Assembly (NCBI GenBank): GCA_002841825.1
Contig: PHAZ01000003.1
Coordinates: 3,039-67,038 of the forward strand
Source of the DNA: Deltaproteobacteria bacterium HGW-Deltaproteobacteria-22
GTDB lineage: Bacteria > Myxococcota_A > Polyangia > HGW-17
Length of the DNA: 64,000 bases
Reading direction: 5' to 3'
The notes beneath the pieces were generated by a model. The model did no database searches and was not told where the DNA came from. It saw only the letters and a program-made list of their open reading frames with translations. The translations under genes and the position numbers were made by a program. This document shows positions 21,109-53,309 of the stretch, in pieces (positions within the stretch are counted from its first letter, which is position 1; every line of letters starts with the position of its first letter).

Positions 21109-22331
21109 TTCAGGTTTTCCGTCTTGCCGGCCATGCTGAAGATCGGCATGTACATCGCGATCATGACGGTGCCGATGCTTCCGCCGAGCACGACCATCAT
21201 CAGCGGCTCGATCATGGCGGTCATGCCCTCCACGGCGACGTCGACCTCATCTTCGTAGAAGTCCGCGATCTTGTTGAGCATGGTGTCCAGCGCGCCGGTC
21301 TGCTCGCCGACGCCGACCATCTGGACGACCATGTGCGGGAAGATCTTCGTTTGCGCCAGGGGCTCGACGATGTTGCGACCCTCGGCGATCTGGGACCGCA
21401 CGGTCATCAGGGCCTTTTCGATGACCATGTTGCCGGCGGCCTTGGAGACGATCTCGAGGGCGTCAAGGATCGGGACGCCCGAGGCCAGCAGCGTGCCCAT
21501 GGTGCGCGTGAACCGGGCCACGGCGATCTTTTTGAGGACCGGGCCGAGGATGGGCGCGTTGAGCATGCCCATGTGCAGGTAGTATCTCCCCTTCGGGAGA
21601 CGCCAGGCCACGATGAACCCGACGATGATCGCGAAGAAGATGCCGAAGATCGGCGTGGCGTGGGCCAGGGCCCAGCGGCTGGTGTCGATCACTTTCTGGG
21701 TCAGGCCCGGCAGCTGGCCGCCCATGCCCGCGAACATCGTCTCGAAGGTCGGGATGACCTTGAAAAGCAGACCCCACATCGATCCGAGGAAGACCACGAT
21801 GAGGATGATCGGATAGTTCAGGGCCGAACGGATGCGGCGCTTGAGCTTGGATTCCTTTTCGATCTGGATCGCGAGCCGGTTCATGATCGTGTCGAGGATG
21901 CCGCCGATCTCGCCCGCCCTGACGAGGTTGACGAACAGGGCATCGAAGGCCTTGGGATGGTAGGACAGCGCCTCGGAGAAGGTGGTGCCCTGCTCGACGC
22001 GCTCCTTGACGTCGAACAGGATTTTTCCGAAGTACTTGTTCTCGGAGGTCGTCGCGAGGATGTCCAGCGCCTGGACCAGCGGCAGACCGGAGTCGATCAT
22101 CGTGGCGAACTGGCGCGTGAAGATCATCAGGTCCCGCGGGGGGATGCCGCCGATGTTGATGTCGAGCTTGCCCAGGTCCTCGAGCTTGAACGGCTTTTTC
22201 TCGGTCATCCGCGAGACGGAGATGCCCTGATTGTTGAGCGTGCTGAAGGCAAGCTGCTCGCTGGCCGCGACGATCGTGCCCTTCTTCAGGGTTCCGTCCT
22301 TGGCTTTTCCTTCGTATAAATATTTTGCCAT
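21105..22331 (-). CDS. pilC: Type IV pilus assembly platform protein PilC (GspF family)
   Basis: Track ORF ends at 22337 (GTG). ATG 22331 has AGAGG upstream and gives MAKYLYEGKAKDGTLKKGTI. GspF repeats: FTRQFATMIDSGLPLVQAL and FTRTMGTLLASGVPILDAL. Confidence 0.9.
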   Translation of the reverse strand: MAKYLYEGKAKDGTLKKGTIVAASEQLAFSTLNNQGISVSRMTEKKPFKLEDLGKLDINIGGIPPRDLMIFTRQFATMIDSGLPLVQALDILATTSENKYFGKILFDVKERVEQGTTFSEALSYHPKAFDALFVNLVRAGEIGGILDTIMNRLAIQIEKESKLKRRIRSALNYPIILIVVFLGSMWGLLFKVIPTFETMFAGMGGQLPGLTQKVIDTSRWALAHATPIFGIFFAIIVGFIVAWRLPKGRYYLHMGMLNAPILGPVLKKIAVARFTRTMGTLLASGVPILDALEIVSKAAGNMVIEKALMTVRSQIAEGRNIVEPLAQTKIFPHMVVQMVGVGEQTGALDTMLNKIADFYEDEVDVAVEGMTAMIEPLMMVVLGGSIGTVMIAMYMPIFSMAGKTENLK

Positions 22332-22477
22332 TGGCACCTCTTTGCCGGTCGATTTCCTCCGGAAAAACCGGATTGCACATAATATTGTTTAAACAACTTG
22401 AAAAATCAAGAAAACACATGAAAGAATGAATGGCAACGAACCACGGATCGTCTTGGCGACGTTCAGGAGAACCCATC

Positions 22478-27499: not shown

Positions 27500-29905
<2,406 letters not shown>

Positions 29906-29984
29906 AATCTCCCGGACTCCATTCCTCTGTGGCCTCGTCCCGGATTCGCGTTATACTGTTCCGCGGTATCGGGGGTTTATTGAT

Positions 29985-31991
29985 ATGAAACGCCACTGGT
30001 GGTTCCTCTTCCTCATTGTGGGCCTTGTCCTCGGATGCGAGCGGCCCGACCCCGTCGACGGGTACGATCCCGACGGCGCCGTGAACAATCATCCTGACAG
30101 CGACATCCCCGATCCGTTCCGTGTGACCCTGGTTGAGCCCGGCCACGGCCCTGTGGAGGGCGGCACCGACGTCACCATCCGCGGTTTCGGCTTCACCGAG
30201 AACATGCGGGTCGCGTTCGGCGGACGCTTCTCTGATCCCACACAGGTGATCACCGTCTCCCCAACGCGGCTGCTGGCCCGAGTGCCCGCCGGCGAAATCG
30301 GCACCGTCGAGGTGAAGTTGATCGAGAACTCCGGCAAGGAGGCTTATCTGGGCAACGCGTTCACCTACGACAGGTTCTCCATCGATCCCCCTTCGGGCTC
30401 GGTCACCGGCGGCACCTTCGTGCGCATCTCCAGCCCCGCCGGTGAGTTGGAGGACACGGACCGGTTCTTCCTCGGCGAGCAGGAACTGACCGACCTGCAC
30501 GTGGTCACGGCCTCCACGGCCACGGGCCGCACGCCGCCGTCCCAGCCCGGCTCGGTGACGTTGCGCGTGGAGAAGATCGACGCCCAGAACCTGCTGGTGG
30601 CCGACGCCTTCGCCTATTACGATACCACTGACCCAGCATACGGTGGTCTCGGCGGCGGTCCCCTCGACGGGGCGCTGACGGTCACGGTGCTCAACACCTA
30701 CGGCCGTGTCCCGGTGGCCGACGCCTTCGTCCTGCTGGGCACGGGCGCCTTCAGCCCGTATTCTGGCCGCACCGACGAGAACGGGCAGATCACGTTCTCC
30801 GATCCCGCCCTGCGTGGCCGGCAGGTCCTGACCGTGGCCAAGGAGGAGTTCATCTCCACCTCCGTGGTGGGCTTCGACGCCAAAAATGCGACGATCTTCC
30901 TCGAGCCGGTGATCCCGCCTTCGGATCCCAACAATGGGCAGATCCCCTCCACGCCCAAGACCGTATATGCCCAGGTCGCCGGCGCCGTGGACTTCAAGGA
31001 CGCCGAGTTCGAGTACTCCTGCAACTGGAACCGGCAGGTGCCGTCCCCGGCTCCGGCGGGGTACCGGCGGGCGGTCCGCGTCTTCCAGACCCTGCGGTCC
31101 TGGAACATCGCCGCGCCAGCCAGCTACACCGTCTACGACACCGACACCTGCGTCGACGGCTTCGGCATTCCCATGCTGTTCGCGGTGTGGCCGGGCGCCT
31201 TCGCGCTGGTGGGCATCGCCGGCTACGAGAAGGACGACCGTTCGGACTTCATCCCGGTGGCCTATGGTGTCACCCGGCGGCTCGTGGTGGGGCCCGCCGA
31301 GACACTCAACACCAAGGTGGTCATCGAGTACCAGCTCGGCAACCGGCAGAACGTGAGCCTGGTCAACGCGCCGCCGCTGGTGCCCGAGACAGGCCCCTCC
31401 CAGTACCGGTGCCGGCTGTTCGTCAACATCGGCGCCGACGGCTATGTGGTGCTCAATGACACCGTGCAGACCACCGACGCCACGCCGCAGTTCACCTACG
31501 AGAAGCAGATGTTCATGGTGGGGCCGCTGGCCGACGCCCAGTTCGCGTTGATGGCCGACGCCCACAATTACGGGCAGTATCCCTTCTCGCAGGTGTTCCT
31601 GACGCGCTTCGAGGACAACCCGGTGATCGTGGACCAGTTCCTGGGCATCCCCAGGCCGCTGGCCCCCACGTCCACCGAGCCCGTGCTCAACGACCGCTTC
31701 TCGTTCACTCCGAGCCCGGTGACCCAGCCCACGTTCCATATCGTCAAGATCAACACCTTCCCCAAGGGCGACGCCTGGTGGCGGCTGTACGTGAACGGGC
31801 CGATCTCCACCTTCGTCCTGCCGGACCTGAGCGGCTTCACCGGGGTTCCCGGCAAGCCGGCGGGCTGGCTCTACTGGCATGTGCAGTCTGTGCTCGTGCC
31901 GGACCTGTCGTTCGACGACTTCACCTACCGGTATCTCGGCGAGAAATACTGGACCTCCACGGCTGCCGACGGAAGCCTGTTCACCTTCTGA
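29985..31991 (+). CDS. IPT/TIG domain lipoprotein
   Basis: Track ORF 29886..31991. ATG 29985 gives MKRHWWFLFLIVGLVLGC (lipobox). IPT/TIG units: VTLVEPGHGPVEGGTDVTIRGFGFTENMRVAFGG and IDPPSGSVTGGTFVRI. The remainder is a large unassigned beta-rich region. Confidence 0.7.
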   Translation: MKRHWWFLFLIVGLVLGCERPDPVDGYDPDGAVNNHPDSDIPDPFRVTLVEPGHGPVEGGTDVTIRGFGFTENMRVAFGGRFSDPTQVITVSPTRLLARVPAGEIGTVEVKLIENSGKEAYLGNAFTYDRFSIDPPSGSVTGGTFVRISSPAGELEDTDRFFLGEQELTDLHVVTASTATGRTPPSQPGSVTLRVEKIDAQNLLVADAFAYYDTTDPAYGGLGGGPLDGALTVTVLNTYGRVPVADAFVLLGTGAFSPYSGRTDENGQITFSDPALRGRQVLTVAKEEFISTSVVGFDAKNATIFLEPVIPPSDPNNGQIPSTPKTVYAQVAGAVDFKDAEFEYSCNWNRQVPSPAPAGYRRAVRVFQTLRSWNIAAPASYTVYDTDTCVDGFGIPMLFAVWPGAFALVGIAGYEKDDRSDFIPVAYGVTRRLVVGPAETLNTKVVIEYQLGNRQNVSLVNAPPLVPETGPSQYRCRLFVNIGADGYVVLNDTVQTTDATPQFTYEKQMFMVGPLADAQFALMADAHNYGQYPFSQVFLTRFEDNPVIVDQFLGIPRPLAPTSTEPVLNDRFSFTPSPVTQPTFHIVKINTFPKGDAWWRLYVNGPISTFVLPDLSGFTGVPGKPAGWLYWHVQSVLVPDLSFDDFTYRYLGEKYWTSTAADGSLFTF

Positions 31992-31997
31992 GGTCAC

Positions 31998-33911
31998 GTG
32001 ACACGATCCCGCCTTCTCAACATCCTGTCGATCCTGTGCTGGGTCGTTGTCGCGCCCGCGGCGCTGACGACCGCCTGCGACTCCACGACCACCAAGCCTG
32101 CCCTGTGTGAGGTCGACCGCATCTACTGCGCCGCCGGCGTGCAGGCCACCTGCACCCATCCGGCCGGGCAATACGCCTTCATCGACTGCGCTTCGGCCGG
32201 ACAGACCTGCGTGCCGGATCTGGGCTGCCGTGTGTGCGTGCCGGACCAGTGGGTCTGTGACGGCGCCCACGTGGCCCTGTGCTCGGCGGACGGGCGCACC
32301 ATGGAGCCTCGCGCCCAGTGCGACACCGATGCGGGCTGGGTGTGCTCCCAGGGACGCTGCGTGCACGCCTGCTCCCAGGCTGCCGCCGACCGCTCGTATC
32401 TGGGATGCGAGTACTGGGCCGTGGACCTCGACAACGCCAAGGTCTCCTCGGGCAACGCCGCCGCCCAGCAGTTCGCTGTGGTGATCTCCAACACCTCGCT
32501 TCTGACCGCGCGGGTCATCGTCGAGGTCGACGACGCGCCCCCGAACTGGCCCGTTCAGTTGCGGGAGGTCGCCCGCACCGAGGTGCCCCCCGAGGGGCTG
32601 CGCGTGCTGTCGCTGCCCTCGCGCGAGGTGGACGGCTCCCCCCTGGGCTCCTGGGACGTCGGCACCCACTCGGCGCTGTCCACGCGGGCGTTCCGCGTCA
32701 CGTCCTCGGCGCCCATCGTCGCGTACCAGTTCAACCCGCTGGAGAACGTCGACGTGTTCTCCAACGACGCCAGCATCCTGTTCCCGAAGAACGCGCTGGA
32801 CTCCGACTACCTCGTGCTCTCGTGGCCCCAGACCATCGCCGACACCAACGATCCCAACAACGACTTCGCCCAGCACCTGCGTGCCTTCGTGACGATCGTG
32901 GCCACCGAGCCCGGCACGAACGTGACCGTCACGCCCAGCGCGCGCATCCTCGGCGACGGGCTCGACATCCCGGCAGCCGAGGCAGGCCAGACCTTCACCG
33001 TGGACATGCACGAGTTCATGGTGCTCAACCTCGAGACCGACGGGTTCCAGGCGGACCTGACCGGCACTCGGATCGTGGCCGACCGGCCCATCGTGGTGTT
33101 CTCGGGATCCGAGGCCTCCGACGTGCCGTTATGGGATTTCTTCGCCGAACGCTACTGCTGCGCGGACCACCTCGAGCACCAGCAGTTTCCGCTGTCGGCC
33201 GCAGGCACGAAGTTCGTCGCCGCCCGCGTCGCGCCCCGCACCCCCGCGGTGTCGGCCGCCGGCGGAGGCTGCGCGATCATCGAGGAGAGCGACCTGTTCC
33301 GGGTGCTCGCGCTCTACGACGGCACCACGGTCTTCACTTCCATGCCGGCCCCGGACGACTACTTCTTCCTGAACCGCGGGCAGATCGTCGATCTGACGCC
33401 GTTCTGCGACATGATCATCGAATCGGACAAGCCCCTGTTCGTGGGCCAGTTCCTGCGCGGGCAGGGCACCACGGGCATCCCCATCGACCTGCCCGGGGGC
33501 GATCCCTCCTTCATCATGGTGCCGCCTGTGGAGCAGTGGCGCGACACCTACGTCTTCCTGACACCGGACAAGTACGCCTTTGATTTCATCACCATCGCGG
33601 CGCCCCAGGGCACCACGATCCAGCTCGACTACCAGTCGATCCACGATTACGACTGCGTGCAGCGGGCGGCGGCCTGCACCACCGGCGTGGATTCAGGTCC
33701 GCAGTACGACGTCTTCCAGTGCCAGTTGTCCTTCCCCCGGGTGTACCCCGACCGACCTCCCGGCCAGAACGTCGATCCGGGCTCCCAGAACGACGGGTAC
33801 CACGTGCTGCGCGCGGATCGCCCCGTGATGCTGCTGGTCTCGGGCTTCGACAAGCACGTCTCCTACGGCTACGTCGGTGGCATGAACATGACCCGCATCA
33901 ACGTGCAGTGA
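31998..33911 (+). CDS. IgGFc-binding-protein-N-terminal-like domain lipoprotein with Cys-rich N-terminal module
   Basis: Starts 6 nt after the IPT gene. Lipobox LTTAC. The pattern matches the bacterial IgGFc_binding family: GCEYWAVDL, AVVISN, VTSSAPIVAYQFNP, ADLTGTRIVADRPIVVFSGSE, GGDPSFIMVPPVEQWRDTYVF, VSYGYVGG. Confidence 0.7.
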   Translation: MTRSRLLNILSILCWVVVAPAALTTACDSTTTKPALCEVDRIYCAAGVQATCTHPAGQYAFIDCASAGQTCVPDLGCRVCVPDQWVCDGAHVALCSADGRTMEPRAQCDTDAGWVCSQGRCVHACSQAAADRSYLGCEYWAVDLDNAKVSSGNAAAQQFAVVISNTSLLTARVIVEVDDAPPNWPVQLREVARTEVPPEGLRVLSLPSREVDGSPLGSWDVGTHSALSTRAFRVTSSAPIVAYQFNPLENVDVFSNDASILFPKNALDSDYLVLSWPQTIADTNDPNNDFAQHLRAFVTIVATEPGTNVTVTPSARILGDGLDIPAAEAGQTFTVDMHEFMVLNLETDGFQADLTGTRIVADRPIVVFSGSEASDVPLWDFFAERYCCADHLEHQQFPLSAAGTKFVAARVAPRTPAVSAAGGGCAIIEESDLFRVLALYDGTTVFTSMPAPDDYFFLNRGQIVDLTPFCDMIIESDKPLFVGQFLRGQGTTGIPIDLPGGDPSFIMVPPVEQWRDTYVFLTPDKYAFDFITIAAPQGTTIQLDYQSIHDYDCVQRAAACTTGVDSGPQYDVFQCQLSFPRVYPDRPPGQNVDPGSQNDGYHVLRADRPVMLLVSGFDKHVSYGYVGGMNMTRINVQ

Positions 33912-41282: not shown

Positions 41283-42707
41283 ATGAAAACAATCGTGTAC
41301 CTCTGGATTACGCTGTCGCTTGCGCTGCCCGCCCACGCGGCCTCCCCCGATCCGGACTGGCCGGATCTGTTTCCGGTCGCAGGTGAACCGCAGAACGGGT
41401 TCCCGTCTTGGTACGAGCGGTTCATCCATGTCATGGTGAACCGGTCACGCGCCGATCCGCCCGTGGATCTGGCTGCCTGCATCAACAGCGGGGCCTGTCC
41501 CGACGGCGTGTGCTTCCCGACCCCGCTCCCCGCGATGGGGTGGGACTACAACCTGGCCCGCGCGGCGCGGTTCCACGCGGCCAACCTGACCGCCACCGGC
41601 TGCGGCATGATGCATAACTCGCCGTGCCAGCTGGTGTCGAACATCAGCGACCTGTACCCGGGATCCTGCGACGGATCGGCCGCCTGCGCCTGTTCTGGAG
41701 GCACGGCCTCGTGCTCGGGAGGCAACGACTTCGCCTCGCGCCTGTCGCTGTTCGGCGCCTCCCCCCGGGCGGAGAACATCGCGTGGCTGGGCGACCCGTT
41801 CGACGTGTTCTACGCCTGGCTGCACGAGAACACCAGCACCGGCACCTGCGCCTGGAGCATGGAGAACGGCCACCGCTGGAACATCCTCGGCGACGCCGGG
41901 ACGATCGGGGTGGGCGGTCAGGGTGGCTACACCGTTCAGGACTTCTCCTACGGCGGTCCCTCCACGAAGCTGGTCGTGGGCGCCCACTATCCAGAGAGCG
42001 GATCGAGCGTGGACTTCTACGTCTCCTGGTACGACACGGCGGCCCCGTCGCTGGCCACTGTGGACGTCGACGGCACCTGCACCCCGATGACCGTGGAGCG
42101 CGGCACCGGCGGCAACGTGGTCTACAAGATCACGCAGGCCGTCGGCGCGGGTTGTCACCGCTATGCCTTCGTGTTCAAAACCTCCGGGGGCACGCGCGAA
42201 CGCTTCCCTTCCACTGGCGCCTTCGGCATCGGCTGCGGTGAGGACTGGACCGTCGATCCGCTGGCAGAGGGCGCCGGTTGTGACTGCACACCGTCCTGTG
42301 ACGGAAGGTCCTGCGGCGACAACGGCTGCGGCGGCTCCTGCGGCGAGTGCACAGCGCCGCTGACCTGCTCGATCGCGTTCGCCTGCGCCTGCCCGACGGG
42401 GACCGAGGACTGCTCCGGCGCGTGCGCGGACCTGCAGACCGACGAGGCCCATTGCGGCACCTGCGGCAACGCCTGCACCGGACAACAGAACTGCATCTCC
42501 GGCGAATGTTCCACGGATCCCGAGCCCGATGCCGGCACCGACACCGACACCGATGTCGACCATGAACCCGGTAACGCCAAGGGTGACGACTGTTCCTGCC
42601 GTGCCGGCACCTCCGGTTCGCCGGCGGGTGGTTTTCCGATCCTGCTGCTGCTGGGGGTCCTGGGTTTCCTGCGCGTGCGGAGTCTCCCTCGCCGGAGGAC
42701 GATATGA
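41283..42707 (+). CDS. Secreted CAP/SCP-domain protein with Cys-rich modules and GC-TM-RRR-type tail
   Basis: Signal peptide MKTIVYLWITLSLALPAHA. CAP pattern: VNRSRADPP, WDYNLARAARFHAANL, ENIAW, AWLHE, GHRWNIL. Cys-rich stretch: CDGRSCGDNGCGGSCGEC..., CGTCGNAC. Tail: DDCSCRAG...FPILLLLGVLGFL...RRR. Confidence 0.75.
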   Translation: MKTIVYLWITLSLALPAHAASPDPDWPDLFPVAGEPQNGFPSWYERFIHVMVNRSRADPPVDLAACINSGACPDGVCFPTPLPAMGWDYNLARAARFHAANLTATGCGMMHNSPCQLVSNISDLYPGSCDGSAACACSGGTASCSGGNDFASRLSLFGASPRAENIAWLGDPFDVFYAWLHENTSTGTCAWSMENGHRWNILGDAGTIGVGGQGGYTVQDFSYGGPSTKLVVGAHYPESGSSVDFYVSWYDTAAPSLATVDVDGTCTPMTVERGTGGNVVYKITQAVGAGCHRYAFVFKTSGGTRERFPSTGAFGIGCGEDWTVDPLAEGAGCDCTPSCDGRSCGDNGCGGSCGECTAPLTCSIAFACACPTGTEDCSGACADLQTDEAHCGTCGNACTGQQNCISGECSTDPEPDAGTDTDTDVDHEPGNAKGDDCSCRAGTSGSPAGGFPILLLLGVLGFLRVRSLPRRRTI

Positions 42708-43366
42708 CCGTTTTATATCGATTATTGTTGATATTTTCCGTGATCTTGTTCTCAGGATGCCGCGGCACCCGTGAGACCGTCGTGACCGAACCTCCGGGCA
42801 AGGCGGCGCCGCCTCCGTCCGTGACCACGCCCGCCAGGGCCACGGGTCCGTTCAGGTGGGACGGCTTCGCCCTGGGCGACACCTTCGACACCGTGATGTC
42901 CCGGGCACCCTATGACAACCCGTGCGATGACGACGCCGTGGATGGCCGCGCCCGCCGTTTCATGGTCTACGGCGCGCTGCCCTGCCGCGACCGGGTCTTC
43001 CCGGAGGACACGACGGTGTTCTTCTTCATCGAGCACACCGAGGATCGTGCCCAGTCCCTGGCCACGAAGATCGTCGCGTTCGGCTACCTGCACGGCTCGT
43101 ACTTCAACACGCGCACGACGTTCCCCCTGGCCACCGGCGAGGAGATCGGGCGGGTGCGTTCGGTGCTGGGTGCGATGCGGGGCTCGTTCACGCTCGAGCG
43201 CAAGGACCGGTCCCTGCTCGTGGAACGCTATGATGGCGACCTTCACGTGTTGATCAAGGACGGTCACGCCTTCGGTTATGTCTTCGGACCCATGCCCGAC
43301 GATCCTCTCAACGAGCAGTGGCGGGGCATCATGCAGATGGCCGTCCGCTACACCCCGATGGATTGA
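42704..43366 (+). CDS. Lipoprotein, function unknown
   Basis: ATGA overlap with the CAP gene stop. MTVLYRLLLIFSVILFSGC (lipobox). No recognisable domain. Confidence 0.6.
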   Translation: MTVLYRLLLIFSVILFSGCRGTRETVVTEPPGKAAPPPSVTTPARATGPFRWDGFALGDTFDTVMSRAPYDNPCDDDAVDGRARRFMVYGALPCRDRVFPEDTTVFFFIEHTEDRAQSLATKIVAFGYLHGSYFNTRTTFPLATGEEIGRVRSVLGAMRGSFTLERKDRSLLVERYDGDLHVLIKDGHAFGYVFGPMPDDPLNEQWRGIMQMAVRYTPMD

Positions 43367-45307
43367 TTATTCTTCCGAACCCATGAACAGCACGGGCAGC
43401 CCGCTGCCGTCGAGAAACAGGGCGTCAACCAGGCCGTTGCCGTCAGCGTCGAGCAGCACCAGGGCGGTCATGTTCTCGCAGTCCAGCCCGAACACAGGGG
43501 TGACGTCGATGAAGCCGCCTGCACCATCGGCTTCGAACAGACGGCACAGCCCGTCTGCGGCGGTCACGAAGAGGTCCGCCAGTCCGTCGAGGTTGGCGTC
43601 GGCGGTCACTGCGTCACGGCCGTCTCCGCGCGAGATCGGCAGGCAGGCGATGGTGTCGTTGAAGAAACTCCCCCGGCCATCGTGGATCAGGCACTGGTCC
43701 TGGCCCGATCCCACCGCGACGAGGTCGAGGTCGCCGTCGAAGTCGACGTCCAGGGGCACGAGCCGCCGGATCCGTCCGACGGGCAGCGGGATCTGTCCGG
43801 CCTCGCTCCAGTCGCCGGTTTCGCCGGCGCCCAGGACGAGATGGAGCAGCGCGTTCTCACCCGTCTTCGCGGTGGTGAAGGCGGCGTCGGCGGGCTCGAG
43901 CCCGTCGATGAGGGTCCAGACCGTGGAGGTGACCTCGTCGGAGGCCCAGATCGGAGTGATCGGCCGTTCGAAGTCGGTGACGCCGTACCGCCCGGCGACC
44001 GGCCCGGTCACGATCAGGTTGTCGACGAAAAGCGCGCCGGTGGCGGGGCCGGATTCGATGGGAGTGAGGGTGAGCTCGAGGGCGGTCGCCGGAAGGTCGA
44101 ACACACCGTTGCCGTCCCCCCCCGAGGGCAGCCATCCAGAGACCTGCGTGGCCTCGAGCGTGCCCCAGGAGGCCGTGGTGAGGGCCGCCCCTGAATGGGA
44201 GAATCGCTCGCCGGAGGCATCCACCAGAGCCAGCGAGAGCGTGTGGCCGGAGGCGTCGCCGTAAAACTCGAAACGCACGGACTGGGGGATCCAGGTCAGC
44301 TCCGGCAGCGGGAACGAGACGCGCAGCGTGGTGCGGACGACCGTGAAGTCGTATTCGAGGCGGCCAGAGGCCTTGCCGCCGGCGGATTGCTCCGTGGAGG
44401 AGGAAAAGGAGCCGATGGCACCCTCGACGTCGGCGGTGACGGGGCGGGTCACGTCCGCGGCCTCGCCAACGGCCTCGTCGAGCTGGAACGCGCTGCCCGT
44501 GTTGCGCAGCACCATCAACTGGCGAAGGCTGGGCACGTCGGGCCGGGAGCGCCAGGTGAGCAGGCTCGTTTTTCCGTCCGCGTCCGGAGGCAGCGGGATC
44601 AGGTCGTAGCAGGTGCTGAAGCTCGAACGCAGATCGAGCGCGGTGGTCACGAAGGAGCCGTCGGAGGCGAAGTCCAGGCGGGAGTCGGCGGTCCCGGGCT
44701 TTCCGCACAGGAGGATCTCGGCGGCCCCGTCGGCGTCGAAGTCGCCGGAGACGAGCGCGGAGAAGCGACCGTCGAGCACGGCCGAGGCATCCAGCGTCTC
44801 GGTCCAGGTGAAGCGCCCCTGACCCTGGTTGAGCGCAAGACGGAAAGCCCCGTCCGTGGTCAGGGCAGCCACGTCGGGTGCGCCATCGAGGTTGGCGTCG
44901 AGGCCGGCCAGGGCCATCAACGGGCCAGACGGGGATGCGGGGATGGCGCCGGGTGCGGGATCGTAGCGCAATACGACGGGCGTCATCGACAGGGCGTTCT
45001 TCCGGATGTCGGCGCCCTTCGTGGTCCGCACGGTGACGTCATAGGTGCCGGCGACGCCGGTGGGGGTCACGATTTCCAGACGGCTCCCTGTCGCGGAGCG
45101 CACCTCGGCGGGCCAGACACCGAGCAGCACCTGTGCGTCGGCGTCGAAGTTTTTACCGTCAATCACGACGACATGGCCACCCGCAGCGGAGACCGTCGCA
45201 GGCTCCACCTTCTGGATTTCGGGCTTGCCGTCGGAGCCGCAGCCCGCGGCGAACCATGCGGCGGCGGTGATGAACAGGGAGAGGGGAATGAACCGGAAGG
45301 ACATCAT
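43367..45307 (-). CDS. IPT/TIG + FG-GAP (integrin-alpha-like/VCBS) repeat lipoprotein
   Basis: 646 aa with lipobox AAGC. IPT: IQKVEPATVSAAGGHVVVIDGKNF. FG-GAP Ca-binding loops: DANLDGAPDVAAL, GDFDADGAAEILL, DVDFDGDLDLVAV, DANLDGLADLFV, DADGNGLVDALFL. The start overlaps the upstream stop (ATGA). Confidence 0.8.
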   Translation of the reverse strand: MMSFRFIPLSLFITAAAWFAAGCGSDGKPEIQKVEPATVSAAGGHVVVIDGKNFDADAQVLLGVWPAEVRSATGSRLEIVTPTGVAGTYDVTVRTTKGADIRKNALSMTPVVLRYDPAPGAIPASPSGPLMALAGLDANLDGAPDVAALTTDGAFRLALNQGQGRFTWTETLDASAVLDGRFSALVSGDFDADGAAEILLCGKPGTADSRLDFASDGSFVTTALDLRSSFSTCYDLIPLPPDADGKTSLLTWRSRPDVPSLRQLMVLRNTGSAFQLDEAVGEAADVTRPVTADVEGAIGSFSSSTEQSAGGKASGRLEYDFTVVRTTLRVSFPLPELTWIPQSVRFEFYGDASGHTLSLALVDASGERFSHSGAALTTASWGTLEATQVSGWLPSGGDGNGVFDLPATALELTLTPIESGPATGALFVDNLIVTGPVAGRYGVTDFERPITPIWASDEVTSTVWTLIDGLEPADAAFTTAKTGENALLHLVLGAGETGDWSEAGQIPLPVGRIRRLVPLDVDFDGDLDLVAVGSGQDQCLIHDGRGSFFNDTIACLPISRGDGRDAVTADANLDGLADLFVTAADGLCRLFEADGAGGFIDVTPVFGLDCENMTALVLLDADGNGLVDALFLDGSGLPVLFMGSEE

Positions 45308-47304
45308 TTCCCCTCCGTGTCACAGGCGTCGCCGAGGCCGTCCTCGTCGGAGTCGAGCTGGTCCGGGTTGGACAGGTCCGGGCAGTTGTCGCAGGCGTTT
45401 CCGCGGTCGAATGCGGACACGAAGCCGCTCTCGCACCAGAAGGCGCGCGGGGTGTCGCAGTCGAAGTCGTTCCACAGGCCGGAGTCGGCGTAGAGTCCGC
45501 CGCAATCCTCGATTCCGCCGCTGTCGTTGGGTTCGCCCTCGGCCCACGGCGTCCAGGTCGGCGTGGTGCTGTCGATCCAGAGGAAGGTGCCCTCCGTCTC
45601 GAGGTCGGACATCCCGATGAAGGCCGAACCGACCATGTGCGCGACCAGGAAGGCGTTCTCCGCTTCGGATCCGATGATGACCAGGCGGGCCTGCAGGGTC
45701 TCGCAGAAGGACCTCGCTTCGCCGAAGGTCCGTGGCGTCTCGCAGAACAGGTACGCCGAATCCGTTCCGAGGTGCAGCGCGCAGCCGGTGCGGGCCGCGC
45801 AGGAGGCGGCGTTGGCGCAGGAGAAGTGCATCCAGTCGGTGTTCTCCTGGTTCGGGTTGGACAATTCGGGACAGTTGTCCAGCGTGTCGGAGACGCCGTC
45901 GCCGTCGAAGTCGTCGGTCTGGGACTGGTGCACGTAGACCGCTGGATAGCCGGTGGCGGGGAAGAACCACCACGCCGGAGGTCCGTCAGCGCCGTCCAGG
46001 GGAGAGAACAGTGCGCCGGAGGTGGGAACAGGATGCCAGGCCGACGCAGTGTAGTCATAGAAGCGGCCGTCGGGATCGTTCCGCAGATAGATCAGTCGAC
46101 CGTCCGTCCGCGTCAGGAAAAGATCCGGGCGGGAGTCTCCGTCCGGATCGGCGATCTGGACCGACACCGAGGACACAGTGCCCAGCCGTGTGAGGCTCTG
46201 GTCCTCGAAAGCGCCGTCGGCGCGCTGGTACCAGAGGCGCGTGCGGAGGGCGTCGGGAATCACCAGATCCATGCGGGTGTCGCCGTCGAGATCGACGGCC
46301 ACGGGTTGCGTGGTGAAGATGGCTGTCTCACGGGGCAGCGCCGCCACGGCCGCTTCAAGGAACGCGCAGTTTCCGTCGTTGAGGAACAGGCGGGGCCCCT
46401 GCGGCGTGGTCAGGAAGAGGTCCGTGTCCATGTCCGCGTCAAAGTCGGCTGCAGCCACCCCGTACAAGGAGGGACCCTCGAGGGGAAAGGCCTCAGGGGT
46501 CCGGTCGGTGAACTGTCCATCTGGACTGCCGGTGAAGATGCGCAGAGGTTTGGCCGCCGTCGTGGTGATCAGGCCGGCGATCAGGTCGTCGGCACCGTCA
46601 CCGTTGCAGTCCATCGGCTTGACCCAGGCGAGGCCTGCCAGCGTCTCGGGAGCGGTCACGGATTGTGGCGGGTTCTCCGAGTTCCATACGATTGTGGCAT
46701 CACCAGTCGCCGCCAACTCGAGACGGTCCAGCGTGCCGTCGCCATCGAAATCACCGGCGGCCAGCCCTGCGAAATCGCCGGGCGCCACCGTCTCGATGCG
46801 GAAGCGGCCGGAGTCATCGGGAACGATCCGGAACAGGCCCTCTGCCGCGGCGATCCAATAGTAGGAACCCCCGTCGCTGCGGGTTTGTCCGGTCAGGAGG
46901 CTTCGCACGGTCAGCGGGCGCAGATCGTCCACGGAGAGCGTCGTGACCGGCTGGTAGTCCAGGATCCGGCCGAGGAAGCGCCAGGCGCCGGGCGCCGTGT
47001 AGGTGTGGCTTTTGGACTCCAGGACCAGGTCCGCCAGGCCGCCTTCGGGCACGGCGGGGGTCGTCACCGTGAGGCGATCGATGGTCTTCTCCACGATGGT
47101 CCTGGCATGGGAACCAAACCGGACCTTGACCACGCTGTCGAGATCGCGGCCTTCGATGACGACGGTCTGGCCCCCGTCGATGGTGGACCAGTTGGGGAAC
47201 CAGCCGCTCACCTCGAAGGCCCGGCCCGCATCGTTGCCGGAGCAGGCTACCAGAAGGGAGAGGATCAGGTTCGGGACGATGCTGCGGAAGAAAGCGCGCT
47301 TCAT
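45304..47304 (-). CDS. IPT/TIG + FG-GAP repeat + thrombospondin type-3 repeat + C-type lectin domain lipoprotein
   Basis: 666 aa with lipobox LVAC. FG-GAP loops: GDFDGDGTLDRL, DCNGDGADDLIAG, ADFDADMDTDLFL, DLDGDTRMDLVI, DPDGDSRPDLFL. TSP3: DGDGVSDTLDNCPELSNPNQ and DNCPDLSNPDQLDSDEDGLGDACD. CTLD: FCE...LVIIGSEAENAF...WIGMSD-like...EPND...EDC...WNDFDC...FWCE. Confidence 0.8.
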   Translation of the reverse strand: MKRAFFRSIVPNLILSLLVACSGNDAGRAFEVSGWFPNWSTIDGGQTVVIEGRDLDSVVKVRFGSHARTIVEKTIDRLTVTTPAVPEGGLADLVLESKSHTYTAPGAWRFLGRILDYQPVTTLSVDDLRPLTVRSLLTGQTRSDGGSYYWIAAAEGLFRIVPDDSGRFRIETVAPGDFAGLAAGDFDGDGTLDRLELAATGDATIVWNSENPPQSVTAPETLAGLAWVKPMDCNGDGADDLIAGLITTTAAKPLRIFTGSPDGQFTDRTPEAFPLEGPSLYGVAAADFDADMDTDLFLTTPQGPRLFLNDGNCAFLEAAVAALPRETAIFTTQPVAVDLDGDTRMDLVIPDALRTRLWYQRADGAFEDQSLTRLGTVSSVSVQIADPDGDSRPDLFLTRTDGRLIYLRNDPDGRFYDYTASAWHPVPTSGALFSPLDGADGPPAWWFFPATGYPAVYVHQSQTDDFDGDGVSDTLDNCPELSNPNQENTDWMHFSCANAASCAARTGCALHLGTDSAYLFCETPRTFGEARSFCETLQARLVIIGSEAENAFLVAHMVGSAFIGMSDLETEGTFLWIDSTTPTWTPWAEGEPNDSGGIEDCGGLYADSGLWNDFDCDTPRAFWCESGFVSAFDRGNACDNCPDLSNPDQLDSDEDGLGDACDTEGK

Positions 47305-47346
47305 GGAAAACTCCAGTTCATGGAACCCATCGCATCGGGTTGCGGA

Positions 47347-48888
47347 TCAGGACCGCAGACGGCGGCGGCGCCAGCCGATCCAGGCCAGCGGCAGCAGGAT
47401 TGGCGGCCAGAGAAAGGTCGTTCCCCCCGTGCGGCCGGTCCGGCAGGCGCAGCCATCGTCTGCCACGGTGGACGTGCGTGGACCCTCAGGCAGAGGCTGG
47501 GAAGCCGGCAGGACCAGCACGGAGAAGTCGACGTTCGGGGAGGGGCAGCGCAGCCATCCGGCAATGCCGGAGACCAGTTGGAGTCGCGCGTCCAGGGACC
47601 CGGCGGGGTTGTCGGGCGTGTGGAAGGTGAACTCGAAGAGGCCCCGCGAGCCGGGGGGCACGTCGGTCAGCAGCAGGGACGGAATCGAGAACGCATACCA
47701 GGAGTCGTCGAGCCAGTCCACGGAACCTTCGAGGTGATCACGGGGGATCTCCAGCCACAGGCTGCCCGCGGTCCACGTCTCCGTGCCGGTGTTTTCAAAC
47801 GCGACCCAGCCGGTGAAGCGCTCCCCGGGAGAGGTGGCCTGGGGAACTCCGGTGTCGATCAGGCGGGCCGACCACGGCGGCGGCGGATCGCCCATTTCCT
47901 GCGGGTAGCCGTCGTCGGCCACGCCCGTGCAGTCGTCGTCGATCAGATCACACCGTTCAGGGCGCGGCTCGTAGATCCGCACGCAGGCCAGGCAGCCGTC
48001 GGCGCAGCGCCTCCGTCCCTCCGCGCAGGGTCCGGGCTCGCCGGTTTCACAGACGGCCTGTCCGCCGTCGGGGTCGGGACCCCAGCAGCTGCCCCAGTCC
48101 GGCCACTGGCAGGAGCCCGTGCAGGTGCGGGACTGGGAGCCGCAGTCACAGCAGGCCTGCGTCTGCGTCTGTCCCGGGGAGCATGGGCCCTCGCCCGAAC
48201 AACCGCTCCAGCCACCCCAATAACAGTTCGATCCGCAGGTGCGGGAGCGGGACCCGCAGTTGCCGCAGCCCTGGTTTTCGACCTGTCCGGGACTGCACTC
48301 GCAGGTGGTCTCGCAGGTGGCCGACGGTATCGGGTGCGGGTAGGAACCCTGGCCGACCCACCAGCTCGTGGACTGGGAGCAGCCGCCGGCGAACGGATCA
48401 ATGCTGGTCCCGTTGACCCGGAAGCCCAGGTGCAGGTGCGGCCCTGTGGAGCTGCCCGAACTGGCCGAATTTCCCAGGTACTGGCCGCAGGAGACGTTTT
48501 GTCCCACGCCCACGGCGATGGAGTCCAGTTGCATGTGGCAGAACAGCGAGACAGTGCCGTCGAGGTGGTCGACCTTCACGTAGTTGCCGCAGGATCCACC
48601 GCAGGTGTTGCCGTAATAGCCGTAGTTGGCGCAGCCGTTGTAGGTGGCCGTCACGCGTCCGGCCGCCGAGGCCAGCACACCGGTTCCCAGCGACAGGGGG
48701 AAGTCCGTGCCGGTGTGCGTGTTGTAGCAGACGCCGCCGCAGCCGTAGTCGACGCAGCCCGAGGCGCTGCCGTTGTGGTCGAAGCCGTAGTTCACGCCGA
48801 TCGACGCGGAGAAGGGCCGTCGCAGCTTGGCACCCTGCGCCGCAGGCACGGAAATGAGGAGGGTCAGGAGAATCGCGAGGGCTCTCAT
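47347..48888 (-). CDS. Secreted M23 (LytM) metalloendopeptidase with Cys/Trp-rich modules and GC-TM-RRR-type tail
   Basis: 513 aa with signal peptide MRALAILLTLLISVPAAQG. Intact M23 ligands: HTGTDF, CHMQ, GPHLHLGF. Two modules of the form C.PGQ...C..CGS.SRTC...C.W..W..C. MopE-like CDLIDDDCTG. Tail: DDGCACRTG...LWPPILLPLAWIGW-RRRR. Confidence 0.85.
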   Translation of the reverse strand: MRALAILLTLLISVPAAQGAKLRRPFSASIGVNYGFDHNGSASGCVDYGCGGVCYNTHTGTDFPLSLGTGVLASAAGRVTATYNGCANYGYYGNTCGGSCGNYVKVDHLDGTVSLFCHMQLDSIAVGVGQNVSCGQYLGNSASSGSSTGPHLHLGFRVNGTSIDPFAGGCSQSTSWWVGQGSYPHPIPSATCETTCECSPGQVENQGCGNCGSRSRTCGSNCYWGGWSGCSGEGPCSPGQTQTQACCDCGSQSRTCTGSCQWPDWGSCWGPDPDGGQAVCETGEPGPCAEGRRRCADGCLACVRIYEPRPERCDLIDDDCTGVADDGYPQEMGDPPPPWSARLIDTGVPQATSPGERFTGWVAFENTGTETWTAGSLWLEIPRDHLEGSVDWLDDSWYAFSIPSLLLTDVPPGSRGLFEFTFHTPDNPAGSLDARLQLVSGIAGWLRCPSPNVDFSVLVLPASQPLPEGPRTSTVADDGCACRTGRTGGTTFLWPPILLPLAWIGWRRRRLRS

Positions 48889-49808
48889 GGGTTCACCTCC
48901 TGATCAGCCAGCGGGACCAGGGAGCGGCCGTCGTGGACCAGGATCCTGCCCTGTGTCACGACCGGGAACCGGGCGCCGGGCCAGTGACCGGTGGTGGCAC
49001 CGTCCGCGGAGATCCGGTAGACGCCTGCGTCGTTCTCGAAGACGAAGCCCTTTTCGGCCCACAAGGGGCCGCGCCGACCGTCGGGAAAGGGCGCGAGCCG
49101 GCTGGAGTGCACCGGGGTGCCGTCCGCAGGGAGCGTCGCGTTGGTGATGCGCCGGGTTGTCCCTCCGGCCGACGGGATCACGGCCAGGGAAGGATAGCCG
49201 CCGAGGGAACTGACAAAGACAATCTCCTTCCCGTCTGGTGAGAAGGCTGGCCCCGCCACGGAGCCGTTTTCATTCGTCAGGCGCAGGATCTCGCGGGTGT
49301 CGAGCCGGATCCGGTACAGGTCCATCTCCGGGATGGGGCCGGCAGTGTAGGCGATGTACACTCCGTCCGGCGAAAAACCAAAGCCCGGGAACACGTCCGT
49401 GGCCAGCTTCGAGACCTGCGCCGACCGTGCGTCCCAGAGGATCAGTCCACCGCCTGCGTCGAGCATGGCGACCTGCGTGCGGTCCTTGTCCTCGAAGATG
49501 CGCACATCCTGGACCGGTCCGGCGACAGGAAGGGGACGGCTTTCCCCGGCCGAGTCCACAAGCACCGCGTTGTACAGGGCTCGCACGGTGGTCCGCTCCG
49601 GCGCGGGCAGGGCCATGCCGTACACGCGCAGGCCGGTCTCCGGCGAGAGTTCGACCAACTTCCAGCCGTCCGGCTCCAGGCCGTCCACCCCGGCGGAGAC
49701 GAAGGCGGCGGACGGACTTCCCACCGGTGCGGGGTCGGCTGTTCCGCAGGCCGGGAAAAGGAAAAAACTGGACAACAGGACGGACAGGAGGAGGTGGACC
49801 CGCTTCAT
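48885..49808 (-). CDS. TolB-like (PD40 repeat) beta-propeller lipoprotein
   Basis: 307 aa with lipobox FPAC. PD40-type repeats: FSPDGVYIAYT and FSPDGKEIVFVS. The stop overlaps the M23 start (ATGA). Confidence 0.7.
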   Translation of the reverse strand: MKRVHLLLSVLLSSFFLFPACGTADPAPVGSPSAAFVSAGVDGLEPDGWKLVELSPETGLRVYGMALPAPERTTVRALYNAVLVDSAGESRPLPVAGPVQDVRIFEDKDRTQVAMLDAGGGLILWDARSAQVSKLATDVFPGFGFSPDGVYIAYTAGPIPEMDLYRIRLDTREILRLTNENGSVAGPAFSPDGKEIVFVSSLGGYPSLAVIPSAGGTTRRITNATLPADGTPVHSSRLAPFPDGRRGPLWAEKGFVFENDAGVYRISADGATTGHWPGARFPVVTQGRILVHDGRSLVPLADQEVNP

Positions 49809-49949
49809 GAGGCACTCCAGAACAGATCTGAACAGGAAGTTGTTGTCGCACAGTAAACAATCATGGCCATTAAGTATACCTGTCTGACCAAGACGAATCC
49901 ATCGGTCAATCGGATGATATTCAGATTAGAATGGTTCTGTGCCGGCCGC

Positions 49950-50060
49950 TGCGGGGACAAAACGGTGGACGCCGGCGACGGCGAGCAGTGCGACGACCTG
50001 GACTTCGGCGGAGCGACCTGTGAAACGCTGGGCTTCTATCAGGCAGTAACGGTTTGCGGC
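49950..50060 (+). pseudogene. Orphan single copy (relic) of the Myxococcus-type cysteine-rich repeat
   Basis: Within track ORF 49863..50087. CGDKTVDAGDGEQCDDLDFGGATCETLGFYQAVTVC aligns with the 48-aa units of the 62194..63414 protein (CGDG....E.CDG..LGGQ.C...GF.GG.L.C). No signal peptide or lipobox. The ORF runs into the 3' end of mraY. Confidence 0.45.
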
Positions 50061-50067
50061 GATCTAC

Positions 50068-51192
<1,125 letters not shown>

Positions 51193-51225
51193 GTTCGGTC
51201 GTACTCCGGAGGTGTCAAAACGGGA

Positions 51226-53160
51226 TCAGGTGCGCAGGGCCACGAGCGCGGAGTTGAGGCGGTGCACCGTCTTCGGATCCGAGCCCTCGAAGTAGTAGCG
51301 CAGGACCGCATCGGTGCCGGACGCACGCAGCTCGAACCAGGCGCCGTCGAACTCGAGGAAGGAGCCGTCCTGCGCCCAGAAGGCGTTGTGGATCGCCGGG
51401 AAGTCCGGGTCCTTCAGGTCGTTGCGCAGGCGGGAGGTGGCCGCTTCGGGCGTCATGACCGTGAGCCCGCGGAAGTAGGAGACCAGCGATTCCTTGTGCA
51501 CATTGGCAGCCTGCTGGGCCGCACGCCGAGCGTCGCCCTGGAGGCTCTCGTCGTAAAGCGTGATGTCCTGGCGCTCGTAGGCCGCGTATGGAATCGGATA
51601 CCGCGCCAGCAGATCCATGTACCACTGCGCGAACGAGTAGCCGGTCTTGTGCAGCCGGGCTGCGGCCAGCAGGGTGAACAGGCCCACCTGGAAGCCGTCC
51701 TTCTCCTTGAGCGCGAGCGATGCGCTGGAGGTGTCATGGTTCTTCACCCAGTCGAGGGTGCCCATGGCAGCTCCACCGCTCTCCTCGGCCATCATCAGGA
51801 ACCGGGGTTTGTGCCCCAGTTGCCGGACGCGGCCGGTAGCTTCCGTGAAGGTGACCTCGACGGCCCCCTCGAGCAGTTGGCGCTGCACCGAGGCGACCAG
51901 TTCACCGAAGTACTTGAAGCCCACAGGCACCAGGACGGTGCCGATCCTCGCGCCATGCTCCGAGGCGATCCGTTCGGCCACGGCCAGGATCGAGCGCGAC
52001 GTGGGGTAGGTGATTGCGGCGACGAAATCATACTTTTCCAGCAGCCCGGCCTCTCCCAGCGCCTGCATGCGAAGCGCCGTGAGCAGGAAATAAATCTGGT
52101 TGGGCTTGAAGTACACCAGACAGTTCGTCTCGTCGAGCAGGTCAACCTCCAGGGCCGCGTCCCGGGCCCGATCGGCCAGCGCCGCCGGTGCCGTCGTCAC
52201 GATGTTGAAGCGGTCGCCGTCGGGATCCCAGATGAACACGATGTCGGCGGCACCCTGCGTGAGGAGATCCTGGGCTCCGATGTGCTTGTAGATCTGCCAC
52301 TTGCCCGGATCCACGCCGTGGTTGACCCCGTCAAGCTGGCCGATGCCGTGATAGTCTTCACTTTCCGCCTCGAACAGGAAGGTGATGCCCCGGTCGTCCA
52401 TGGGAAAGTCCAGCATCCCGAAGATGCGCCGCGCGGCGGCACCCATCGAGCCTCCCTCGGTGCAGATCGCGACCTTCAGACCGCCGATCAGCGCCTGACG
52501 GATCGTGTCGATGCCTTCCGGATCCATGAGCTTGCCCAGGGATTCCACGTAGGCCGGCAGTGGGTCGAAGTCGTGGCGGATGTGCGGGTCATGGGCTGAA
52601 GCCAGGGAAATCTCGAGGCCGTCGGTGCAGATCGTCGAGGTGAGCTCGCGGACCCGGGCCTGGATCTCGCTGGCCATGCTCAACAGTTGCATGCCGTGCT
52701 CGTCCATGGGTTTCCATCCGCCCTTGTAGCTCTGGGAGTGGCTCGCCGTGAAGTTCTCGCCCCCGCCGAGTCCGTAATGGAACACGCCGAACGAACTCAT
52801 CCAGATCGGGGTGGTCCTGGCGCTCCCTCCCTGCAGGTGGACCGTGATGCCCGCGGCCGCGTAGATGCGTGCGCACAGGTCGATGAATTTCTGGGTGTGC
52901 GGCCGGACCTCGCCGCCGATGTGCAGGCTCGTGATGCCGTGCTTTCTGGCGACGTCGACCCGGGCCGTGGCGATGATGCCCATCGTGATCGCCGAGAACG
53001 GCACCTTCGTGGAGAAGAAGTCCTGCGGATCAAGCAGGTCCCGGTAGCCGGCGGTGCCCAGCGCGAAGCCGGCCCCCCATTCTCCAAGGCGGGCCTCGAC
53101 GGCCAGGGCAGGGGTGATTGTCAGCAACTCGGGTTCGGTTCCAAACGGAGTGAACAGCAT
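51226..53160 (-). CDS. Alpha-D-phosphohexomutase superfamily protein (atypically long)
   Basis: Track ORF 51226..53250; ATG 53160 gives MLFTPFGTEPE. The four family loops appear in order: FTASHSQ (phosphoserine), WDPDGDRFN (metal), AEESGG (sugar), RASGTD (phosphate). Confidence 0.8.
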   Translation of the reverse strand: MLFTPFGTEPELLTITPALAVEARLGEWGAGFALGTAGYRDLLDPQDFFSTKVPFSAITMGIIATARVDVARKHGITSLHIGGEVRPHTQKFIDLCARIYAAAGITVHLQGGSARTTPIWMSSFGVFHYGLGGGENFTASHSQSYKGGWKPMDEHGMQLLSMASEIQARVRELTSTICTDGLEISLASAHDPHIRHDFDPLPAYVESLGKLMDPEGIDTIRQALIGGLKVAICTEGGSMGAAARRIFGMLDFPMDDRGITFLFEAESEDYHGIGQLDGVNHGVDPGKWQIYKHIGAQDLLTQGAADIVFIWDPDGDRFNIVTTAPAALADRARDAALEVDLLDETNCLVYFKPNQIYFLLTALRMQALGEAGLLEKYDFVAAITYPTSRSILAVAERIASEHGARIGTVLVPVGFKYFGELVASVQRQLLEGAVEVTFTEATGRVRQLGHKPRFLMMAEESGGAAMGTLDWVKNHDTSSASLALKEKDGFQVGLFTLLAAARLHKTGYSFAQWYMDLLARYPIPYAAYERQDITLYDESLQGDARRAAQQAANVHKESLVSYFRGLTVMTPEAATSRLRNDLKDPDFPAIHNAFWAQDGSFLEFDGAWFELRASGTDAVLRYYFEGSDPKTVHRLNSALVALRT

Positions 53161-53309
53161 GGTGCGCGCATCCTTTTGCGTGGGTGGAAAACCTCGAAGA
53201 GTCGTCCCCTTTTCGGAGCCGAAAATACCATTGGCTGGATCAGTGTGCAAATCTATTGTGGGAAGGTCGGCCGCCGGCGGGGGGCCGGTCTCATGGGCTG
53301 GTTTTGGGC

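Follow-up and report, generated by a model that had tools for sequence, protein, structure and literature searches.

The stretch of DNA considered here (hereafter the window) comprises 64,000 nucleotides (nt) of contig PHAZ01000003.1 from a groundwater Myxococcota metagenome-assembled genome (MAG), HGW-Deltaproteobacteria-22. Between positions 43367 and 49808 it carries four open reading frames (ORFs) on the minus strand, named g1-g4 with g1 first in transcription order, whose products bring together a peptidoglycan endopeptidase, a β-propeller lipoprotein and a pair of lectin and integrin-like lipoproteins. The first, g1 (48885-49808; 307 amino acids, aa), encodes a lipoprotein with a single β-propeller of the TolB fold (PD40); g2 (47347-48888; 513 aa, 34 of them Cys) encodes a secreted M23 peptidoglycan endopeptidase arranged as head, stalk and anchor; g3 (45304-47304; 666 aa) encodes a lipoprotein in which a TIG domain, an FG-GAP propeller, thrombospondin type 3 (TSP3) repeats, a C-type lectin domain and further TSP3 repeats follow one another; and g4 (43367-45307; 646 aa) encodes a lipoprotein with a TIG domain and an FG-GAP propeller split by a β-rich insert. 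Annotated copies of g1 are on record, an exact one under the name 'Deltaproteobacteria bacterium HGW-Deltaproteobacteria-22' and near-identical ones from Myxococcota MAGs.

A preliminary description of this DNA, made from the letters alone, had reported four same-strand genes with two ATGA overlaps and a 42-nt gap, and direct reading of the ORFs and their junctions confirms this arrangement. The stop codon of g1 overlaps the start of g2 at 48885-48888 (read as 'GGAGGtgaacccATGA') and that of g3 overlaps the start of g4 at 45304-45307 ('GGAGGGGaaATGA'); the 42-nt spacer between g2 and g3 (47305-47346) holds a Shine-Dalgarno sequence, GGAG, 7 nt before the g3 ATG, and a GGAG-type ribosome-binding site stands ahead of every one of the four starts. 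G+C content at third codon positions (GC3) is 0.84-0.87 in g1-g4, as in the window's other real genes, compared with 0.6-0.7 in overlapping shadow ORFs and a GC content of ~65% in the window and genome; all four ORFs have the coding signature of the host genome and are real genes. A single transcript over g1-g4 is likely, and its promoter probably lies in the 259 nt between mraY and g1 (49809-50067), the sole long non-coding gap on the strand, which is locally AT-richer and places a GGAG 8 nt before the g1 ATG. As a promoter scan found no sigma-70 consensus site, this promoter is one that we can only infer; a terminator scan returned terminator-like sites only at chance level. Two further claims of the description also held: all four products carry export signals (three lipoboxes, that of g1 atypical, and in g2 a signal peptide with a C-terminal tail), and the M23, FG-GAP, TIG, Lectin_C, TSP_3 and PD40 domains were recovered in a Pfam hidden Markov model (HMM) search, in which the calls for g1-g4 all exceed curated cut-offs.

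The head of g2 is a LytM-type M23 catalytic domain (aa 57-165; 48394-48720) that scores 73.4 bits against Peptidase_M23 (PF01551; cut-off 28.7). Its zinc and catalytic residues, H58, D62, H118, H151 and H153 (HxxxD, H, HxH), are all present, and they are invariant across 25 aligned homologues and every metagenomic member not clipped by a contig end; the domain is predicted to be catalytically intact, as first proposed. Among solved structures the bacteriolysin zoocin A is the nearest (1.3e-20), ahead of ShyA, lysostaphin and LytM. Secreted bacteriolytic M23 enzymes such as zoocin A, lysostaphin, LasA and pseudoalterin, the last a predatory enzyme dependent on the type II secretion system (T2SS), share with g2 the LytM-type domain and all of its zinc and catalytic residues (PMC6962226), but they are released and carry SH3b or other wall-targeting domains, whereas g2 is predicted to be lipid-tethered on a stalk, has extra conserved cysteines in the M23 fold and comes with a propeller partner and separate lectin proteins. 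The family is large, with >212 matches at E < 1e-10 in a word-indexed search and 206 representatives at 50% identity (E <= 1e-30) in an exhaustive one. The signal peptide of g2 is predicted to be cleaved between AQG and AK, and 3-5 residues past this site a near-invariant RRP motif (residues 23-25; 48814-48822) recurs across the family; it might act as a plug that keeps the enzyme latent, guide sorting or serve a structural purpose.

Behind the head lies a Cys-rich repeat stalk (aa 192-330; 47899-48315) with an invariant Cys pattern that includes CCDCG and a MopE-like motif (Cu-binding_MopE, E = 1e-4, under the Pfam cut-off). An Ig-like domain of NBR1 type follows (aa ~340-470; 47479-47871), matched weakly by N_BRCA1_IG in g2 (E = 0.029) and at 2.8e-9 in a homologue with the same module. 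The protein ends in a tripartite sorting tail of MYXO-CTERM type (aa 478-510; 47359-47457) reading ...DDGCACRTGR...FLWPPILLPLAWIGWRRRRLRS, in which GCACR is followed by a hydrophobic stretch and the Arg-rich end WRRRRLRS. This combination of Cys, transmembrane (TM) helix and Arg-rich end is conserved across the g2 family, some homologues of which the Joint Genome Institute (JGI) labels as MYXO-CTERM, so that g2 unites an N-terminal signal peptide with the extreme C-terminal Cys/TM/Arg tail by which such proteins are defined. The host is annotated as Myxococcota and the window contains a T2SS-F family gene. MYXO-CTERM proteins, mostly predicted adhesins or hydrolases, undergo lipidation and cleavage by the myxosortase MrtX and reach the cell surface via the T2SS (PMC11980579). 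In its Sec signal, head, Cys-rich stalk and MYXO-CTERM anchor g2 resembles TraA of the Myxococcus xanthus TraA/TraB system (PMC3325183), which likewise has a co-encoded partner gene and involves glycan recognition. The differences are substantial: the head of g2 is an M23 hydrolase and not a PA14 lectin, its Cys repeats have no match to the TraA repeat model TIGR04201, its partner is a propeller lipoprotein and not an OmpA-domain protein, and the lectin sits on a separate FG-GAP lipoprotein. Searches of g1-g4 for PA14, TIGR04201 and OmpA, the marks of TraA/TraB membership, gave no match.

The portion of g2 comprising the stalk, Ig-like domain and MYXO-CTERM tail (residues ~192-513; 47347-48315) is common to proteins with other heads (including P0141-P0303). 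Among 43 relatives that share this module the heads include CHAP (7), SpoIID (6), M23 (3), GH25 (2), Peptidase_C39_2 (2), Amidase_6, VanY and NAGPA, and in two relatives FG-GAP/TIG is fused directly onto the g2-type stalk module. Recognised wall-hydrolase heads are found on at least 22 of the 43 (NAGPA excluded), which points to the stalk-anchor proteins being a family of tethered murein hydrolases whose heads can be exchanged. Near one GH25-headed paralogue (locus L153, 5640-9731), ~1.8 kb upstream on the opposite strand and beside a radical-SAM/SPASM gene, lies a gene for an Rce1-like/CPBP protease, a protein of the enzyme family to which myxosortase belongs.

The product of g1 scores 43.6 bits against PD40, and its AlphaFold2 (AF2) model is a confident single propeller (predicted local distance difference test, pLDDT, 83.8; predicted template modelling score, pTM, 0.81) whose best Protein Data Bank folds in Foldseek are TolB propellers, then S9-peptidase and tricorn propellers (template modelling score 0.4-0.5). 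The label 'TolB-like' in the preliminary description applies to the fold and goes no further: the TolB model TIGR02800 reaches 55.3 bits against a cut-off of 343 in a match that covers only ~80 residues, and g1, ~100 aa shorter than TolB, leaves no room for the N-terminal alpha/beta domain. Unlike TolB of the Tol-Pal system, with which it shares the propeller fold and PD40 repeats, g1 also encodes a lipoprotein and has no tol/pal neighbours. The signal peptide and lipobox (49746-49808) end in LFPAC, an atypical lipobox; its Cys21 is invariant in 18 aligned homologues, fused forms included, and the lipobox is canonical in most of them. With a ratio of non-synonymous to synonymous substitution (dN/dS) of 0.40-0.47, g1 is the fastest-evolving and least constrained of the four genes (g2 0.07-0.21, g3 0.17-0.41, g4 0.21-0.35; mraY 0.04-0.07).

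The distribution of g1 suggests that it accompanies the M23 head and not the stalk as such, since no g1 match was found beside the GH25-headed stalk paralogue; at a Peptidase_C39_2-headed paralogue (L154) there was likewise none, an uninformative result as that gene lies 346 nt from the contig end. The adjacency of g1 to g2, together with its absence at the GH25 paralogue and at generic M23 genes, is the partner specificity looked for in a hydrolase effector/immunity pair. In Bdellovibrio, Bd3459/Bd3460 pair a predator peptidoglycan endopeptidase with a co-encoded self-protection protein (PMC4686830), and this and other effector-immunity pairs resemble g1/g2 in setting a wall-cutting enzyme beside a small, linked, fast-evolving and head-specific partner. 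The partner here is a β-propeller and not an ankyrin protein, inhibition is only proposed, some family members have no partner, and no type VI secretion system (T6SS) or other injection machinery is adjacent. In several relatives single ORFs (P0063, P0067, P0075 and P0078; L090 10001-12661; L108 9926-13513) span g2-type and g1-type parts in the order M23, stalk, MYXO-CTERM helix with Arg-rich end, lipoprotein signal with lipobox, propeller. These were rejected as Rosetta-stone evidence of a fused protein, as the TM hairpin keeps both sorting signals and two mature proteins are expected; they would support strict co-expression of g2 and g1 and not their physical fusion, and may be a product of read-through or an artefact of assembly.

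Conservation was assessed in five distant g2 members chosen blind to their context (L089-L093) and in 46 metagenomic loci found via an N-terminal M23 sub-alignment, all searched with HMMs built for g1-g4. Among members whose sequence extends 1 kb or more upstream, collapsed at 90% identity (n=37), a g1-type propeller gene directly adjoins g2 in 32, upstream in 30 (mostly overlapping or <30 nt away) and downstream or fused in two. As a control, 80 loci from a genome-contig scan, being generic M23 (SSGxSTGPHL) or MopE-motif matches mostly from Bacteroidota, Chloroflexota and Actinomycetota, yielded a g1 match in one, and that one was a Deltaproteobacteria MAG. The pair g3/g4 is less constant: of the members with at least 5 kb of flank on both sides (n=17) seven have it beside the core and ten do not, and it is present in seven of ten members with a full-length head-stalk-anchor g2. 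The claim of a four-gene operon thus survives in part, in that adjacency and coupling are real, but the conserved entity is a two-gene core of g1 and g2 with g3/g4 as a frequent accessory pair and not a fixed set of four. At one locus, L098, a full-length g2 paralogue (~50% identical) stands with no adjacent g1, nor g3/g4 upstream; it belongs to the sample series that also yielded L094, a locus nearly identical to that of the window, and the organisms of this series may carry both partnered and unpartnered copies of g2.

The absence of g3/g4 from ten of the 17 loci indicates that the lectin pair is not needed for the function of the core, and it also lends something to the notion that g3 and g4 are mere neighbours of the M23 and propeller pair with no functional link to it. 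So does the situation in close relatives of the window (MraY 92-97% identical): these keep g1-g4 along with the whole neighbourhood, and since everything there is syntenic, adjacency within this clade is uninformative. Elsewhere the picture is different. The pair stands next to the core in at least six independent, unrelated neighbourhoods, with frames that usually overlap or nearly abut, and in three gene orders: g1-g2-g3-g4 in the window, L003, L005, L007 and L094; g2·g1-g3-g4 in L090; and g3-g4-g1-g2 in L091, L093, L101 and L122. The genes called around L089-L093 are unrelated to those flanking the module in the window. The genes of the module are syntenic in relatives, a check that the preliminary description had proposed. 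Taken with the two direct fusions of FG-GAP/TIG to the stalk module, this recurrence makes chance neighbourhood an extremely improbable account of g3/g4.

The two accessory lipoproteins have lipoboxes LLVAC (g3) and FAAGC (g4). In g3, Pfam recovers FG-GAP_3 at 93 bits over four stretches, Lectin_C at 62, TIG at 35.7 and TSP_3 at 28.5, and in g4, FG-GAP_3 at 70.4 and TIG at 39.3. The IPT/TIG domain of g3 (aa 32-98; 47011-47211) precedes an FG-GAP/VCBS propeller (aa ~130-450; 45955-46917) with calcium-type D-x-D-x-D-G loops such as DFDGDGTLD; loops of this kind are readable in both g3 and g4, as in integrin-like FG-GAP proteins. The C-type lectin carbohydrate-recognition domain (CRD; aa 524-625; 45430-45735) contains EPN (residues 591-593; 45526-45534), the Glu of IEDC (E599; 45502-45513) and WND (residues 611-613; 45466-45474), and the solved structures closest to it are those of the mannose receptor, collectins and MBP-A. 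In nine homologues the Ca-site-2 motif is EPN or QPD according to lineage, EPN in the window and QPD in lineages that include L091 and L093, with the Glu and WND invariant; the sugar-binding residues of the domain are intact. In C-type lectins EPN is the motif of mannose/N-acetylglucosamine type and QPD that of galactose type. The g3 homologue of L093 has an added Fibrinogen_C domain. The architecture recalls integrin alpha and bacterial FG-GAP/VCBS proteins, in which an FG-GAP propeller with calcium-type loops stands beside Ig-like (TIG) domains, and thrombospondin/COMP, where type 3 repeats occur with a C-terminal lectin-like domain as they here flank a lectin domain; in contrast to integrins, g3 and g4 are bacterial lipoproteins with no equivalent of a beta subunit, and the lectin is of the animal CRD type with EPN/QPD. 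The insert in the g4 propeller (aa ~310-436, ~125 aa; 44000-44380) has ~8 predicted β strands in a block of pLDDT ~46-73 and no Pfam match even at E = 10, and g4 gave no match to solved structures beyond the TIG domain; that the insert is a carbohydrate-binding module is a guess. In another assembly (L001, 5064-6818) the match to g3 (window 45304-47304) starts at residue 83 and the gene is called at 582 aa, on a contig otherwise 100% identical over these genes, a difference at the 5' end that is either strain variation or assembly error.

Such proteins might alternatively belong to a system for adhesion or recognition among kin (cohesion, aggregation or biofilm formation, TraAB- or MtsC-like), in which the lectin and integrin-like proteins would lead and the M23 domain would trim or bind the matrix or wall of sister cells. 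The head-stalk-anchor plan is TraA-like; MYXO-CTERM proteins include TraA and a cohesion protein named MstC in PMC11980579; the TSP3 repeats of g3 match the NCBIfam MtsC model locally; and the EPN/QPD switching resembles polymorphic recognition. Set against this, the strict invariance of the M23 catalytic residues points to an enzyme under selection, the heads of sibling proteins are other peptidoglycan hydrolases and not adhesins, the lectin pair is dispensable in many loci, and among g1-g4 there is no PA14 domain, TIGR04201 repeat or OmpA-type TraB partner. We regard kin adhesion as unlikely.

Our preferred reading, held with about even confidence and built on what the sequences show of the genes and their domains, of the residues for catalysis and sugar binding and of how the module is conserved, is that the locus is a Myxococcota-specific module for an outward-facing, lectin-guided and surface-tethered murein hydrolase, which would serve contact-dependent attack on the walls of other bacteria in predation or competition. 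We read g2 as a surface-tethered wall hydrolase because of its MYXO-CTERM sorting route and TraA-like head-stalk-anchor plan. By analogy with TraA, the Sec pathway would export it and its MYXO-CTERM helix would retain it in the inner membrane; after lipidation of the tail Cys and cleavage by myxosortase, the T2SS would carry it to the surface, where it would display the M23 endopeptidase head on a disulfide-rich stalk. The translationally coupled lipoprotein g1 would be a partner specific to the M23 head, most likely a latency or self-protection factor that shields the producer's own wall during periplasmic transit, or alternatively a cofactor that binds or positions the substrate; self-protection is an attractive fit to its tight coupling and fast evolution. 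As an accessory adhesion pair, g3 and g4 would contribute binding to a target glycan through the calcium-dependent lectin of g3, the specificity of which may switch between EPN and QPD types by lineage. The interchangeable lytic heads on a common stalk and anchor would also count for an outward-directed role.

The surface position of these proteins, their association in a complex, the delivery of the hydrolase to another cell as the preliminary description had proposed, the identity of that target and the part played by g1 are nevertheless all things that we infer from sequence and by analogy, and several observations weigh against this reading. Firstly, the MYXO-CTERM model TIGR03901 gives the g2 tail 17.1 bits, just under the cut-off of 20. 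Secondly, five members whose upstream flank extends 1 kb or more have no adjacent g1 and yet keep all catalytic residues, so that an explanation of the M23 genes lacking g1 as catalytically dead was rejected; unless g1 is encoded elsewhere in the genome, these intact members weaken the case for obligatory immunity. Thirdly, the pair that would guide the enzyme is missing from more of the adequately flanked loci than retain it, and the AF2 model of g4, for which a homologue search had found only 7 close orthologues, is poor (pLDDT 55, pTM 0.36). All relatives are metagenomic, with no phenotype that can be linked to the module. Finally, a surface-tethered enzyme must breach the outer membrane in order to reach the peptidoglycan of a Gram-negative cell.

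The same components would also serve for nutrient scavenging, in which a surface-tethered hydrolase and its glycan binders would digest free peptidoglycan or glycoconjugate debris with no contact killing; the groundwater origin of the MAG fits this, as does the reported richness of sludge Myxococcota bins in M23 genes (PMC11821767). A dedicated, tightly coupled and fast-evolving propeller specific to the M23 enzyme is harder to explain on such terms, and the switching of lectin specificity suggests that variable cell surfaces are being recognised; the two points do not settle the matter, and we judge scavenging to be distinctly unlikely.

The genes around the module bear on a further alternative, namely that it performs housekeeping wall remodelling as an autolysin of DipM, NlpD or MepM type that would act on the sacculus of its own cell together with a periplasmic protein resembling TolB and be tied to mraY and murI. 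A genuine mraY (375 bits in TIGR00445, cut-off 192) does lie 259 nt upstream of g1 on the same strand, and close by on the other strand are genes for glutamate racemase (murI) and for an M50 protease of RseP type; g1 has the TolB fold, and the M23 domain matches models of MepM, ShyA and DipM weakly. The mraY/murI context is local to the window's own clade and absent from L089-L093, and a link between mraY and the module was rejected on these grounds. All equivalog models for housekeeping proteins fall far below their cut-offs, TolB among them and without its N-terminal domain, while the sorting tail, lectin, integrin-like partners and swappable lytic heads are ill-suited to a periplasmic autolysin, and the fast evolution of g1 is also at odds with such a role. 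Housekeeping is in our view a very unlikely explanation.

Within the window, mraY (in 50068-53250) is not part of a dcw cluster. Upstream of it is encoded a PGM/PMM-like protein of unusual length (674 aa), for which even the best family matches fall far short of their cut-offs. At the other end of the module a convergent gene of no assigned family (42704-43366, 220 aa) abuts g4 with no spacer between the stop codons, beside a 474-aa MXAN_6577-like Cys-rich protein (41283-42707); the two genes (41283-43369) are present in L003 and absent from L005 and L007, and are a variable insertion. Other envelope and surface genes of the window (15267-18491, 21105-22337, 29886-33911) encode a 1074-aa WG_beta_rep protein, the T2SS-F family protein and, one after the other, a protein with a TIG domain and one with an IgGFc_binding domain.

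The components of the module come from known families; the module itself and the stalk family with swappable heads appear undescribed. Searches found no characterised homologous locus or match to a defence system, in agreement with the preliminary description, which had recognised no described system here. None of the papers searched combines MYXO-CTERM with M23, the legend abbreviations for a table of 35 M. xanthus MYXO-CTERM proteins include neither M23 nor FG-GAP, and literature on M23 in myxobacterial predation and on FG-GAP with lectin did not yield the module. No PADLOC defence model matched any of g1-g4 at E <= 0.001, and a reading as an anti-phage defence system was rejected for that reason. 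The module is best placed as a variant on bacteriolytic hydrolases that are tethered or secreted and on MYXO-CTERM surface proteins resembling TraA. Going further, it is conceivable, if doubtful, that it represents an undescribed contact-dependent lysis apparatus of uncultured Myxococcota, in which MYXO-CTERM-tethered stalks would bear swappable hydrolase heads, the M23 head would be neutralised or gated by the propeller, and the lectin and integrin-like pair would select the target by its glycan through EPN/QPD variants, an apparatus distinct from the Tad-like Kil system, T3SS*, the T6SS and outer-membrane exchange.

Most of the phylum Myxococcota is uncultured, and what is known of predation and social recognition in myxobacteria comes mainly from Myxococcus xanthus, with its Kil/Tad-like system, T3SS*, T6SS and TraAB. 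Were a lectin-guided, surface-tethered hydrolase confirmed, it would offer a genetically simple and testable mechanism, comprising a surface-tethered wall-cutter, an enzyme-specific partner and lectins that possibly set the range of targets, and would give a concrete function to part of a large and mostly unstudied MYXO-CTERM surface proteome. The stalk family with its swappable heads offers a ready supply of new muralytic enzymes and perhaps of proteins that inhibit them, and the EPN/QPD switch provides a handle on whether glycan recognition decides who is attacked.

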